Origin: a virus | Strand: one strand, 5' to 3' | DNA length: 11,188 nucleotides | IMG/VR virus record: IMGVR_UViG_3300018019_000494 | In this document: piece after piece, positions 8,443-10,805 of the stretch | How the letters are laid out: every line of letters starts with the position of its first letter | Position numbering within the stretch: position 1 is the first letter of the stretch | The notes under the pieces: generated by a model | What the model was told of the DNA's origin: nothing | The model's database searches: none | Seen by the model: the letters and a program-made list of their open reading frames with translations, nothing else | Position numbers and translations under genes: made by a program

Positions 8443-8519
8443 GGTGGCGGTCGTCTAGCGGCTAAGACACCTGACTGTGGATCAGGATAGCATGGGTCCG
8501 AATCCCATTCGCCACCCCA
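8443..8519 (+). tRNA. tRNA-His(GUG) with encoded G-1 and C73
   Basis: Acceptor GTGGCGG/TCGCCAC, G-1 at 8443 pairing with C73, perfect D and anticodon stems, loop CTGTGGA. The T-loop TCCGAAT has C at position 55. Confidence 0.8.
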
Positions 8520-8538
8520 ATTTTGAGGAGAGACGTTG

Positions 8539-8614
8539 GTCCGTGTAGCTCAGAAGGAAGAGCACCACGCTCCGAACGTGGAGGTCGCGAGTCCGAGTCT
8601 CGCCATGGACACCA
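8539..8614 (+). tRNA. tRNA-Arg(CCG)
   Basis: Acceptor GTCCGTG/CATGGAC, D-stem GCTC/GAGC, anticodon loop CTCCGAA, T-arm GCGAG-TCCGAGT-CTCGC (C55). Confidence 0.8.
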
Positions 8615-8618
8615 GTTT

Positions 8619-8825
8619 ATGATGACGTTCACGATCAGCGACGAGAAGGCGGCGCAGTACAAGGCGTGGAGCGAAGAGCACCGGAAGACGTGCGGGGCGC
8701 GACCGGATATGAGCATGGCCCTGTACAGCTTCGTGTTCACGCCGAACGGTCTTGGGGACGGCATATCGGTCAAATGCCCCTGCGGCGAGAGGGTATTCCT
8801 CGACGCCGGGGACGAGGATTTATAG
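8619..8825 (+). CDS. Small Cys-containing protein, 68 aa (MMTFTISDEKAAQYKAWSEEHRKTCG...CPCGERVF), located between tRNA genes
   Basis: Very high GC3. It starts 5 nt after tRNA-Arg(CCG) and its stop abuts the next tRNA (8826). The listed longer ORF 8523.. runs through two tRNAs and is rejected. Confidence 0.6.
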   Translation: MMTFTISDEKAAQYKAWSEEHRKTCGARPDMSMALYSFVFTPNGLGDGISVKCPCGERVFLDAGDEDL

Positions 8826-8903
8826 GCGCGTGTAGCTCAGCCGGAATAGAGCGCTATTCTGCGAAGATAGAGGTCGGCGGTCCGAGTCCGCCCATGCGCA
8901 CCA
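8826..8903 (+). tRNA. tRNA-Arg(GCG)
   Basis: Acceptor GCGCGTG/CATGCGC, D-arm GCTC-AGCCGGAATA-GAGC, anticodon loop CTGCGAA (stem with one G-U pair), T-arm GGCGG-TCCGAGT-CCGCC (C55). Confidence 0.75.
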
Positions 8904-8911
8904 AGTTTTTT

Positions 8912-8989
8912 GCCGGGCTAGCCATTGGACATGGCGGCACGCCTTCGAAACGTGCACGTTTGCGGGTTCGAATCCCGCGCCCGGTTCCA
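8912..8989 (+). tRNA. tRNA-Arg(UCG)-like with a non-canonical anticodon arm (9-nt loop CCTTCGAAA, or a 7-nt loop closed by a C/A mismatch)
   Basis: Acceptor GCCGGGC/GCCCGGT (G1-U72), T-arm GCGGG-TTCGAAT-CCCGC, anticodon stem GCACG/CGTGC. The anticodon assignment TCG is inferred from U33 placement. Followed by a T8 run. Confidence 0.55.
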
Positions 8990-8999
8990 GGTTTTTTTT

Positions 9000-9077
9000 G
9001 CGCCCGTAGCTCAGCGGAATAAGAGCATTGGTCTACGAAACCAAGGGTCGCGTGTTCGAATCACGCCGGGCGCACCA
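9000..9077 (+). tRNA. tRNA-Arg(ACG)
   Basis: Acceptor GCGCCCG/CGGGCGC, D-arm GCTC-AGCGGAATAA-GAGC, anticodon loop CTACGAA with a perfect stem, T-arm GCGTG-TTCGAAT-CACGC. Confidence 0.85.
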
Positions 9078-9081
9078 ACAT

Positions 9082-9168
9082 TGAGGTGTAGGGGAATCGG
9101 TAGACCCACCTGGCTGTTACCCAGGAGCCGAAAGGCACTTGCAGGTTCGAAGCCTGCCGCCTCAGCCA
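9082..9168 (+). tRNA. Atypical 87-nt class-II-like tRNA: Leu-like D-arm (GGG-GAATCGGTAGA-CCC), long variable arm, but anticodon GUU (Asn), U1-A72 and G73
   Basis: Acceptor TGAGGTG/CGCCTCA, perfect anticodon stem CCTGG/CCAGG with loop CTGTTAC, variable arm AGCCGAAAGGCACTT, T-arm GCAGG-TTCGAAG-CCTGC, CCA encoded. Confidence 0.55.
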
Positions 9169-9186
9169 GTTTAGAGGGAGGATTCA

Positions 9187-9453
9187 TTGAGACAGGATGC
9201 TCCAGAGATCGTCAGGATTGAAGATCGGGCGGTGCTTGAGCCACTCGCCCAGCGCGGCCTGGCGGCCCACGGGCGGCTGCGGGCCGCACGCGCAGCCCTG
9301 GTCGAAGCGCAGCGGGCGGAAATCGCCGCAGAGCAGGCGGTCGCTCAGGCGGAGCGGGGATTCGCCGCCGCGAACCGGGAGATCGTCGGCGCGGGGTACC
9401 ACGACACGGGGCACGTCGTGGGCTACCTTGAGAAAAGTTCCGTTCCTCGGTAG
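9187..9453 (+). CDS. Hypothetical Ala/Arg-rich helical protein, 88 aa, TTG start
   Basis: GAGGGAGG RBS 5 nt before TTG 9187. High GC3. The stop codon lies inside the first 10 nt of tRNA-Asn. Confidence 0.5.
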   Translation: MRQDAPEIVRIEDRAVLEPLAQRGLAAHGRLRAARAALVEAQRAEIAAEQAVAQAERGFAAANREIVGAGYHDTGHVVGYLEKSSVPR

Positions 9454-9518
9454 CTCAATGGCAGAGCATTCGGCTGTTAACCGAAGGGTTGAGTGTTCGA
9501 GTCACTCCCGAGGAGCCA
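9444..9518 (+). tRNA. tRNA-Asn(GUU), canonical, U1-A72, G73
   Basis: Acceptor TCCTCGG/CCGAGGA, D-stem GCTC/GAGC, anticodon loop CTGTTAA with a perfect stem, T-arm GAGTG-TTCGAGT-CACTC. Confidence 0.85.
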
Positions 9519-9523
9519 AGTTT

Positions 9524-9598
9524 GGGTCTGTAATTCAGCGGCTAGAAGCCCTCGCTCTTAACGAGGTAACGAGAGTTCGAGTCTCTCCAGACCCACCA
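9524..9598 (+). tRNA. tRNA-Lys(CUU), copy 1
   Basis: Acceptor GGGTCTG/CAGACCC, A73, anticodon stem CCTCG/CGAGG, loop CTCTTAA, T-arm GAGAG-TTCGAGT-CTCTC. The D-stem has one A/G mismatch. Confidence 0.75.
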
Positions 9599-9618
9599 GG
9601 CATCTGATAGAATAGGGC

Positions 9619-10020
9619 ATGAACAAGAAAGCTCAAGGCACTCGGTCAGTCGGTGCGGTGATGAGCCACTTCATCAAAGCAGGCAAAATCGTCTTGATGC
9701 CGATTGGAGACAATGAGCGATACGATTTCGTCATTGATGAGGATGGGCGGTTTCGGCGTATTCAAGTCAAAACGGGCAAGGTCAAGAACGGAGCGATAGA
9801 GTTTAGTACCGCCAGCACTAATCTTGAAAACGGTAAGTGGGTGAGACACGGTTATAGGGGACAGATTGACGATTTCGCAGTTTACTGCCCTAAACTCGAC
9901 AAGGTTTACCTTGTGCCTATAGACGAAGCAGGTGGTCAGACACACTGTTCTTTGCGGCTTGAGCCAGCGAAGAACGGTCAACAAAAGGGCATTAGGCTGG
10001 CTGAGCAGTACGAGGTTTAG
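9619..10020 (+). CDS. PD-(D/E)xK-fold nuclease-like protein (Hjc/YraN-UPF0102-like), 133 aa, with foreign composition
   Basis: GC is about 50% and GC3 about 55%, versus about 85% GC3 in the flanking genes. The pattern G..G...FIKAGKIVL...DFVID-x7-RIQVKTGK resembles the core of YraN/Hjc-like nucleases. Its stop codon shares its last base with tRNA-Lys copy 2. Confidence 0.6.
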   Translation: MNKKAQGTRSVGAVMSHFIKAGKIVLMPIGDNERYDFVIDEDGRFRRIQVKTGKVKNGAIEFSTASTNLENGKWVRHGYRGQIDDFAVYCPKLDKVYLVPIDEAGGQTHCSLRLEPAKNGQQKGIRLAEQYEV

Positions 10021-10095
10021 GGCTACTAACTCAACTGGTAGAGTAGCAGACTCTTAATCTGCGAGTTCGGGGTTCGAGTCCCCGGTGGCCCACCA
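10020..10095 (+). tRNA. tRNA-Lys(CUU), copy 2, with a different sequence from copy 1
   Basis: Acceptor GGGCTAC/GTGGCCC, D-arm ACTC-AACTGGTA-GAGT, anticodon stem GCAGA/TCTGC, loop CTCTTAA, T-arm CGGGG-TTCGAGT-CCCCG, A73. Confidence 0.8.
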
Positions 10096-10134
10096 AGTTT
10101 CCGGGTATTAGAACTCTTAGGATAGGAGGTCAGC

Positions 10135-10680
10135 ATGCCCGACGTACTGGTTCTCGACATGAACTACCGCCCTGTCGGCTTCAAGTCCTGGCAGGACGCG
10201 ATCACGAACGTGTGGAAGGAGCGGGCCATCGTCGTCAAGGAGGACGAGTCCGGCCTGAAGCTCCACTCCCCGTCGTTCGAGGTCGGGATGCCGAGGGTGA
10301 TCCGCGTGCGCAACGCCTGGGTGAAGCGGCGCAAGACATCCGTGCCGTTCTCGCGGCGCAACCTGTACGTCCGCGACGGCGGCGAGTGCCAGTACTGCGG
10401 TAGGCACCTCAAGCTGGAGGAGTACACCCTCGATCACGTGATCCCGCGTTCGCAGGGCGGCGTGAGTTCGTGGGTCAACATGGTCCTCGCCTGCATGCGC
10501 TGCAACAAGCACAAGGCGGGCCGGACGCCGCAGCAGGCAGGGATGCCCCTCCTGCACAAGCCCGTCGTCCCGAAGGTGGACGACCCGAAGTACAACTTCA
10601 AGCTCCACATCCGCAAGATGCGGCCCGAGTGGAAAGAATGGGAGAATTTCCTTTACTGGAATATCGAGCTTGACGAGTAG
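10135..10680 (+). CDS. HNH endonuclease, 181 aa
   Basis: TAGGAGGT RBS. Motifs CQYCG...LDHVIPRSQGG...N...CMRCNKHK (the HNH zinc-finger core). Confidence 0.8.
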   Translation: MPDVLVLDMNYRPVGFKSWQDAITNVWKERAIVVKEDESGLKLHSPSFEVGMPRVIRVRNAWVKRRKTSVPFSRRNLYVRDGGECQYCGRHLKLEEYTLDHVIPRSQGGVSSWVNMVLACMRCNKHKAGRTPQQAGMPLLHKPVVPKVDDPKYNFKLHIRKMRPEWKEWENFLYWNIELDE

Positions 10681-10694
10681 ATCAAGCGACAAGC

Positions 10695-10718
10695 CCCGGA
10701 GGAGCAACCCTCCTCCGG
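10695..10718 (+). terminator. Strong GC hairpin (CCCGGAGGAG-CAAC-CTCCTCCGGG) without a good U-tract; a possible terminator or processing/stability element
   Basis: Perfect 10-bp stem, 14 nt after the HNH stop and 9 nt before tRNA-Arg(CCU). Confidence 0.35.
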
Positions 10719-10727
10719 GCGAAATTT

Positions 10728-10805
10728 GGCCCCGTAGCTCAGCGGAATAAGAGCGACGCACTCCTAACGCGTAGGTCACTGGTCCGAATCCAGTCGGGGT
10801 CACCA
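10728..10805 (+). tRNA. tRNA-Arg(CCU)
   Basis: Acceptor GGCCCCG/CGGGGTC, D-arm identical to that of Arg(ACG), anticodon loop CTCCTAA with an A31/C39 mismatch, T-arm ACTGG-TCCGAAT-CCAGT (C55). Confidence 0.7.

Follow-up and report, generated by a model that had tools for sequence, protein, structure and literature searches.

Why should a tRNA position that is held almost invariant, U55 with its pseudouridine (Psi55), be lost in a whole subset of the tRNAs of a phage array while everything else in them is kept? The question is raised by the virus record IMGVR_UViG_3300018019_000494 (IMG/VR), a stretch of 11,188 nucleotides (nt) that was analysed at its full length and is referred to below as the window. 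Its tRNA genes for His(GUG), Arg(CCG), Arg(GCG) and Arg(CCU) have C at position 55 of the T-loop, as does a tRNA-Lys(UUU) gene of the same lineage that lies past the window end. From published work it follows that such tRNAs would receive no Psi55 from TruB, would lose the contact of U55/Psi55 with G18 and would no longer display the U54-U55-C56 motif; in fact, a U55C tRNA undergoes no pseudouridylation, and a weaker elbow is predicted for it (PMC13492117). Phage tRNA arrays as such are known, and what is new here is an array in which U55 has been lost recurrently and in a clade-specific manner. Full-text literature searches returned no description of C55 in phage tRNAs.

C55 in Otherwise Intact tRNA Genes

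According to ARAGORN, the window carries 12 tRNA genes, all on the + strand, between positions 8333 and 10892, and a 13th follows beyond its end. Independently, the Rfam model RF00005 aligns 11 of the 12 at 49-68 bits. The five genes with C55 are given here, with their T-arms written as stem/loop/stem; L numbers are our handles for loci.

8443..8519, + strand: tRNA-His(GUG), with G-1 at 8443, body 8444-8519 and C73; C55 at 8498; T-arm ATGGG/TCCGAAT/CCCAT (orthologs GTGGG/TTCGAAT/CCCAT); Rfam 57.8 bits
8539..8614, + strand: tRNA-Arg(CCG); C55 at 8593; T-arm GCGAG/TCCGAGT/CTCGC; Rfam 64.4 bits
8826..8903, + strand: tRNA-Arg(GCG); C55 at 8882; T-arm GGCGG/TCCGAGT/CCGCC (T-loops of orthologs TTCGAGT, TTCGAAT or TTCGACT); Rfam 58.7 bits
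10728..10805, + strand: tRNA-Arg(CCU); C55 at 10784; T-arm ACTGG/TCCGAAT/CCAGT (the ortholog in L355 is nearly identical over the 5' two-thirds and has the T-arm GTGAG/TTCGATC/CTCAC); Rfam 57.1 bits
9109-9183 of L005, corresponding to about 11333-11407 in window numbering and starting about 145 nt past the window end: tRNA-Lys(UUU), the fifth C55 gene; T-arm CCCGG/TCCGAGT/CCGGG (orthologs in L355, L357 and L358 CTCGG/TTCGAGT/CCGAG)

An earlier note, made from the letters of the window alone, had described the first four of these as T54-C55-C56 loops enclosed by perfect 5-bp T-stems, and the description stands. ARAGORN and Rfam place the T-arm in the same register in all four, the Rfam scores (57.1-64.4 bits) being far above the gathering score of 29, with alignments that cover model positions 1-71 and have a high posterior probability in the T-arm. 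The loops read TCCGAAT or TCCGAGT, and each of the perfect stems has a different sequence. An alternative register with U55, which would have undone the observation, is offered by neither program. As to the remaining eight window tRNAs, which had been described as canonical, all do have U55, but the tRNA-Asn at 9082-9168 has the loop TTCGAAG, with G60, and not TTCGART.

Apart from position 55, the conserved sites are in place. The D-loop GG (G18-G19), U33, G53-C61, U54-A58, C56 and R57 are found in all 13 tRNAs of the lineage, so that position 55 is the only deviating site among those tallied in the T-arm, at GG and at U33 (positions 8 and 14 were not used). The retention of GG in the four tRNAs had been pointed out before, and inspection of the D-loop and T-stem sequences showed no compensating change at G18, in D-loop size or in T-stem strength. 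The identity elements of tRNA-His are kept, with an encoded G-1 (8443) opposite C73, and all 12 window genes encode CCA. Moreover, the C55 tRNAs decode 100% of the His codons and, among the Arg codons, CGC and CGU (49%), AGG (24%) and CGG (17%), as counted over 4370 phage codons. Taken with the Rfam scores and the compensatory stem changes reported below, these properties make the C55 tRNAs look like real and functional genes.

Errors of sequencing, which the earlier note had asked to be considered, and of assembly are ruled out by an exact look-up of two window proteins, which yielded 13 more contigs in JGI, ENA and Logan samples. Their identity to the window is 99.96-100%, and no position within the tRNAs varies. 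Since all of them represent one genotype, they carry no information on conservation over time.

Origin of C55 in the Array

Relatives of the locus were fetched through a 399-amino-acid protein of the window (5534-6733) and the gene for an HNH endonuclease inside the array. The relatives agree with the window lineage in their gene order and in the order of the array: Trp, His, Arg-CCG, Arg-GCG, Arg-UCG, Arg-ACG, Asn, Asn, Lys-CUU, Lys-CUU, HNH, Arg-CCU, Gln and Lys-UUU. In these syntenic relatives (L354, L355, L357, L358, L361, L365, L368 and L369), U55 is present in every ortholog of the five C55 tRNAs, and C55 is therefore the derived state. In the case of Arg-CCG, the ortholog in L369 is 95% identical to the window gene and yet has U55 (loop TTCAAGT).

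The earlier note had suggested that the shared change reflects either a common origin or a selected feature, rather than random decay. The first of these proposals does not agree with the orthologs. Window tRNAs group by amino acid and not by base 55 (Arg-CCG with Arg-GCG at 74% identity, Arg-GCG with Arg-ACG at 72%, Lys-UUU with Lys-CUU at 70%), and each C55 T-arm has the stem of its own orthologs, or a variant with a compensated pair, together with the ortholog-specific base at position 59. Because of these ortholog-specific stems and bases, the U55 state of the orthologs and the grouping by amino acid, the sequences point to five separate point substitutions as a better fit than a single origin or the copying of a T-arm.

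The dismissal of random decay, by contrast with the proposal of a common origin, was borne out. Changes specific to the window lineage affect position 55 in 5 of 13 tRNAs and every other unpaired conserved position in 0 or 1 each. Base pairs in the stems have changed in a compensatory manner with respect to the orthologs, at 50:64 in 5 of 7 comparisons, at 51:63 in 4 of 10 and at 31:39 in 8 of 11, which indicates continuing selection on the tRNA fold.

Recurrent Loss of U55 in One Clade

In a tree of the HNH gene, the window lineage, L403 and L355 form one clade with 99% neighbour-joining bootstrap support (nucleotides). C55 is present in 9 of the 42 tRNAs of this clade, as against 0 of 106 in eleven sister lineages (Fisher p = 6e-6). 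The window lineage has it in His, Arg-CCG, Arg-GCG, Arg-CCU and Lys-UUU; L403 in Arg-UCG, Gln-CUG and Lys-UUU; L355 in Lys-CUU. The loss of U55 is thus recurrent and clade-specific, with a different set of tRNAs in each member, and this amounts to at least eight independent U55C events after the clade arose. A clade-specific factor has altered the regime at position 55.

The survey of related phages that the earlier note had proposed places C55, among the close lineages, in a single clade. L403 is a 436-kb contig whose C55 pattern is repeated in three more assemblies; the P0121 contigs are the same genotype again. Further cases of C55 occur on a more distant branch (L379/L400 and L380/L387). 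When all the relatives are taken together, C55 is found in 9 of their 277 unique tRNAs against 5 of 13 in the window lineage (Fisher p = 1.3e-4). Among those 277, position 55 is U or C and never A or G, while positions 53, 57 and 61 are invariant. Relatives closer than 85% HNH identity, by which the five events of the window lineage could be ordered, were absent from 5.8 billion proteins.

C55 in Other Phages and in Cells

The frequency of C55 in other phages was approached with the pattern GTAGCTCA-N(38-52)-GGTCCGARTCC, which represents one D-arm/T-arm sequence context and matches 95 stretches in IMG/VR. Control loci were fetched with the U55 version of the same pattern, among the matches listed, and the frequencies rest on the tRNAs in the fetched loci. 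Not one of the 622 unique tRNAs in the control phage loci, of which about 490 were unselected, has C55 (upper 95% bound 0.6%). The loci with the C55 pattern fall into 54 independent groups, and among their 455 other tRNAs at least 29 further cases of C55 are present, against 0 of 490 (p = 4e-10). Examples are a phage with C55 in 9 of 19 tRNAs (L070) and one with C55 in 7 of 31 (L028), these tRNAs being confirmed by Rfam. A pattern with R55 matches 70 stretches, all of them G55 and none A55, which are clustered within genomes and belong mostly to one phage group. Unlike the window lineage, the phages with the C55 pattern also deviate more at other conserved sites, and part of their C55 signal would appear to be general sloppiness.

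Two further observations concern phage tRNAs. A second recurrent non-canonical T-loop, with A54 and U58 (ATCGTAC, ATCGTTG, ATCATAC), is present in L377/L378, L388-L391, L028/L106 and L043, and looks like a swapped 54:58 reverse-Hoogsteen pair. In one phage group (L020-L112 and L406-L450; contigs of about 45-90 kb from IMG/VR sample 3300045988 and similar ones), a C55 Arg(CCU) is accompanied by G55 tRNAs whose anticodons start with A34 (Pro-AGG, Thr-AGU, Leu-AAG, Ser-ACU). The group also has tRNA-like genes in which the anticodon loop is enlarged and the T-loop reads TTGGAGT.

In GTDB species genomes, too, the C55 pattern is matched by at least 120 records (loci L235-L353). Among the matches listed, the same isoacceptor has C55 across related genomes: Lys-UUU in many Nitrososphaerota, His-GUG in Eremiobacterota and Arg-UCG or Arg-CCG in Desulfobulbaceae. 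In Patescibacteria it is found in Asp-GUC and others, sometimes in several tRNAs of one locus (3 of 5 in L318). The cellular C55 tRNAs resemble those of the window in their T54-C55-C56, in the canonical rest of the T-arm and in the retention of G18-G19, and since C55 is fixed in cellular lineages, it is compatible with function. They differ in that C55 is usually limited to one fixed isoacceptor per lineage, whereas in the array it affects 5 of 13 tRNAs, is recently derived and falls on other tRNAs in sister lineages. Acquisition of the phage tRNAs from a C55 host was considered and rejected: no phage C55 tRNA resembles the cellular ones found, and the tRNA-His of Eremiobacterota differs from that of the window.

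Possible Causes: Tolerance and Drift, or Escape From a Nuclease

The cause that we prefer, tentatively and with less than even confidence, to nuclease escape and to editing is a clade-specific tolerance of C55 combined with drift towards guanine plus cytosine (GC). The higher GC of the clade suggests that its host changed, and with this change purifying selection on U55 would have been relaxed to any pyrimidine. Substitution pressure from AT to GC and drift could then have fixed U-to-C changes in several tRNAs, which would remain working elongators free of Psi55, like the natural C55 tRNAs of some bacteria and archaea. A tRNAGly of Lactiplantibacillus plantarum is naturally C55, and its conversion to U55 leaves glycylation unchanged (PMC10464925).

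Tolerance with drift is plausible because the family shows only U-to-C changes at this position, because the GC content of the clade is higher (56.6-60.9% vs 52.8-56.4% in the sisters) and because the loop changes specific to the window lineage are in excess from AT to GC (9, vs 2 from GC to AT). The divergence from the relatives is large, with protein identities of 57-85%, and over such a depth positive selection would not be needed for a site freed to either pyrimidine to change in 5 of 13 tRNAs. The loss of genes in the lineage (MVP-like and HisRS-like, see below) also speaks for it, as does the fact that no complete set of resistant tRNAs is required.

A number of observations weigh against this explanation. 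The GC gap of 4-5 points is small for a jump of C55 from 0% to 21%, and no other conserved site is relaxed in the window lineage. In the control loci, position 55 is the best-conserved site of the T-loop, positions 53, 54, 56, 58 and 61 each deviating in 0.8-1.6%; the absence of C55 from the 622 control tRNAs means that U55C is not generally mild, so that tolerance needs a specific change of host or phage. C55-rich phages span 31.6-62% GC, a range that refutes GC pressure as a general cause of C55 and leaves it as a possible contributor in the window clade. Furthermore, G55, A54:U58 or C54 occur in 14 of 26 groups with the C55 pattern vs 6 of 44 groups (p = 7e-4), and this joint removal of U54 or U55 in other phages looks, from the sequences, like avoidance of a motif as much as like drift.

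Such avoidance is what would be expected if the loss of U55 (as C55 in the window clade, and as C55, G55, A54:U58 or C54 elsewhere) were a counter-defence adaptation against T-loop endonucleases that require U54-U55, such as Cash. By removing this determinant the phage would keep its own tRNAs working while those of the host are cleaved, a possibility that we regard as unlikely, though concrete and open to test. CbCash, a cA4-activated Schlafen nuclease associated with type III CRISPR, cuts tRNAs mainly in the T-loop UUC, on the 5' side of U55; cleavage is abolished when either U54 or U55 is singly substituted, and the authors left open whether phage tRNAs are targeted (PMC13462974, July 2026). 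The requirement of this enzyme matches exactly what is missing in the C55 tRNAs, where U55 is replaced and all other structural features of the T-loop are intact, a match at the level of sequence only. The CdiA-CT(E479) toxin cuts between T54 and Psi55; both it and Cash act at the dinucleotide altered in the window tRNAs and are candidate antagonists rather than relatives of the feature.

Precedents for escape concern other sites of the molecule. Local substitutions are known to let phage tRNAs evade nucleases directed at the anticodon loop or stem (PMC10264068; PMC12445682; PMC11555353). The arrays and escape variants described in large phages (van den Berg et al., 2023, PMC10264068), for P2-OLD (PMC12445682) and for a retron (PMC11555353) resemble the present array in being co-oriented tRNA clusters with small open reading frames (ORFs) and nucleases, and in that phage tRNAs deviate at a site read by a known defence nuclease. 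The difference is that the known changes lie in the anticodon loop or stem, involve 1-3 tRNA species and answer a known nuclease, whereas here the change is at T-loop position 55 and involves five species.

Several of the distributions set out above also agree with escape: the restriction of the change to one site, at least eight independent U55C events in one clade with none in its sisters, the clustering of C55 within particular phages (at least 29/455 vs 0/490), its co-occurrence with G55, A54:U58 and C54, the 70 stretches with G55 and none with A55 in the one D-arm/T-arm context scanned, and the use of the affected tRNAs for heavily used codons. On the other side, only 5 of 13 tRNAs (His, Arg, Lys) are changed in an array that covers six amino acids, so that a broad T-loop nuclease would still stop translation and the changed set would suffice only against a species-specific one. 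CbCash cuts 28 E. coli tRNAs and also anticodon loops with a UC motif (PMC13462974), while Arg(CCG) and Arg(CCU) retain U33-C34. In addition, the published substitutions of U55 may not include C, the greater deviation of C55 phages elsewhere at other sites fits a general relaxation, and the single C55 tRNAs fixed in cells need a different explanation.

Other Explanations

A third explanation, which we consider quite improbable, is that C55 was selected for some other tuning of the tRNAs, such as avoidance of TruB binding or turnover, an altered lifetime or a role outside translation. The non-proteinogenic tRNAGly of staphylococci have an altered T-loop. TruB D48N, which is catalytically inactive, binds U55C tRNA about 5-fold more tightly, without modifying it (PMC13492117). 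The C55 tRNAs of the array nevertheless have ordinary elongator identity elements and anticodons and match heavily used codons.

Slightly less probable again is the editing of the transcripts, by which a cytidine deaminase of host or phage would convert the genomic C55 to U, possibly followed by Psi, and the mature tRNAs would be canonical. Several tRNAs of one genome with C at a universally-U position are the signature that led to CDAT8, the enzyme responsible for C8-to-U8 editing of 30 tRNAs in Methanopyrus kandleri (PMC3695527), and in Vibrio cholerae TrcP takes part in C32-to-Psi32 editing, by way of U, as a bacterial precedent (PMC9553926). The window tRNAs share this signature and differ in the position concerned (55). 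However, a zinc-deaminase motif of the CDA type (H/CAE...PCxxC) is absent from the window, from L005 and from the fetched parts of the relatives and of the C55-rich phages, which cover less than 10% of a genome of about 400 kb, and the window ORFs include no Pfam deaminase. The G55 of other phages could not be repaired by deamination, and the C55 of L. plantarum tRNAGly is treated as a genuine C55 (PMC10464925).

Common origin or concerted evolution, in which one C55 T-loop spread by duplication or short-patch gene conversion, is largely refuted by the orthology described above and is now very improbable. An 11-mer (GGTCCGAATCC) is indeed common to His and Arg(CCU), as is a 13-mer (CGGTCCGAGTCCG) to Arg(GCG) and Lys(UUU), and selection would not be needed for C55 to cluster within genomes. 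But the identical tracts measure only 9-13 nt, the groups are those of the amino acids (74%, 72%, 70%), U55 orthologs have the same T-stem or one differing by a single compensated pair, with their specific base 59, and the three members of the clade have C55 in different tRNAs.

That the genes are decaying pseudo-tRNAs or an assembly artefact is hardly credible, even though the lineage has lost or truncated neighbouring genes, since 13 assemblies are identical at the C55 sites, the cloverleaves are perfect with compensatory stem changes and no alteration at other conserved positions, and all five deviations fall on position 55 (p about 8e-5 under the deviation spectrum of the relatives).

Significance of the C55 tRNAs

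U55 loss is recurrent and clade-specific in these phages, and it is met again in unrelated phages and in some cellular lineages. The C55 tRNAs, with U55 orthologs that are up to 95% identical, are natural substrates for testing whether Psi55 is dispensable in accessory tRNAs. The same substrates can be used to ask whether defence nucleases directed at the T-loop drive the evolution of phage tRNAs in the way that anticodon nucleases do. If tolerance and drift alone are at work, the finding still marks hosts with a different constraint on U55. If escape were true, the C55 tRNAs would provide the first natural case of escape at the T-loop, and the question that the Cash authors raised on the targeting of phage tRNAs would have its answer.

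The Array and Its Neighbours

The array serves six amino acids only. Its other members, and the genes interspersed among them, are as follows.

8333..8408, + strand: tRNA-Trp(CCA), first gene of the array, called by ARAGORN; T-loop TTCAAAT, U55; Rfam 50.6 bits; orthologs in L354-L358
8619..8825, + strand: small conserved ORF of about 67 amino acids; no Pfam family; 58-62% identity by tblastn in L357, L358 and L368
8912..8989, + strand: tRNA-Arg(UCG), U55; atypical D-arm; below the Rfam gathering score; kept in relatives; the L403 ortholog has C55
9000..9077, + strand: tRNA-Arg(ACG), U55; D-arm the same as in the C55 Arg(CCU); Rfam 65.8 bits
9082..9168, + strand: tRNA-Asn(GUU), the first of two; T-loop TTCGAAG (G60); hairpin insertion of 12 nt in the variable region; Rfam 51.1 bits
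9184..9414, - strand: small conserved ORF of 76 amino acids between the two tRNA-Asn genes; 41-57% identity by tblastn in L355, L357 and L368
9444..9518, + strand: tRNA-Asn(GUU), the second, U55; Rfam 68.1 bits
9524..9598, + strand: tRNA-Lys(CUU), U55; 100% identical to the L403 ortholog
9619..10020, + strand: gene for a PD-(D/E)XK endonuclease (PF11645, E = 2.9e-37)
10020..10095, + strand: tRNA-Lys(CUU), U55; Rfam 63.7 bits
10135..10680, + strand: gene for the HNH endonuclease; 82-85% amino acid identity to relatives, which have it in the same position within the array; served as anchor and as marker for the tree
10819..10892, + strand: tRNA-Gln(CUG), U55; Rfam 49.4 bits; the L403 ortholog has C55

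Two of the U55 tRNAs have an unusual architecture. Arg(UCG) has the D-arm GCCA/TTGGACA/TGGC and a variable loop of 7 nt; given that the tRNA is conserved in L355, L357, L358 and L403, it is probably genuine, if odd. The first Asn(GUU) measures 87 nt, and the 12-nt insertion with respect to its orthologs is a GCC-GAAA-GGC hairpin, which gives it a shape like that of class II tRNAs, an unusual one for Asn.

The 399-amino-acid protein matches PHROG 10079 (E = 8e-108) and has 910 homologs, many of them on contigs of 100-465 kb, and the contigs on which relatives of the array are located measure 100-447 kb, apart from one record of 894 kb. The window lineage is accordingly taken to be part of a family of very large phages of soil- or peat-type metagenomes, the habitat being read from the record names alone. 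INPHARED holds no close phage relative, the sole match being a 60-nt piece of tRNA-Asn, and the exact T-arm of the window tRNA-His has no match in IMG/VR. Some IMG/VR relatives of the 399-amino-acid protein (L001-L004) were discarded as too distant and lacking the array. The 894,233-bp contig (L452, JGI Ga0374055_0000025) carries the L403 genotype and may be a concatemer, a mis-assembly or a non-phage element; its length exceeds that of any phage genome known to us.

Upstream of the array, the window encodes a nucleotidyltransferase of the RlaP type (3410-4261) and an MVP-shoulder protein (2004-2996). The latter corresponds to only the C-terminal 315 residues (84% identity) of proteins of about 820-840 amino acids with Vault_3 and MVP_shoulder domains in the relatives, the N-terminal 527 residues or so having been deleted in the window lineage. 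To our knowledge, a vault-protein-like gene is unusual in a phage.

Between the Trp and His tRNAs of the relatives lies a HisRS-like ORF of 118-205 amino acids (PF13393/PF00587), with a mutual identity of 81-98% (L354 12397-12753; L357 12443-13060; L403 2292-2639). It is missing from the window lineage, where the spacer between the two tRNAs (8409-8443) is 35 nt long. A tie between this loss and the C55 of tRNA-His was considered and set aside, as it would rest on a single case and both L403 and L355 retain the ORF.

The HNH protein, with 82-85% identity to its orthologs, is better conserved than the products of neighbouring genes (57-69% for the 399-amino-acid protein) and keeps a constant place in the array; to judge from these sequences, it is unlike a typical selfish homing endonuclease. 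The PF11645 gene belongs, among the fetched loci, to the window lineage only, except for a fragment of 36 amino acids in L386, and its slot is occupied by an R2K ATP-grasp ORF in L354, L355, L361, L365, L369 and others. The arrays of the relatives also enclose an ORF for an IF3 C-terminal domain and an ArgRS-like DALR fragment (L354 13733-15138; L358 19648-21024; L005 13297-15269), near which genes for a PARP, an ADP-ribosylglycohydrolase, a peptidase M24 and an amino-acid permease are located.

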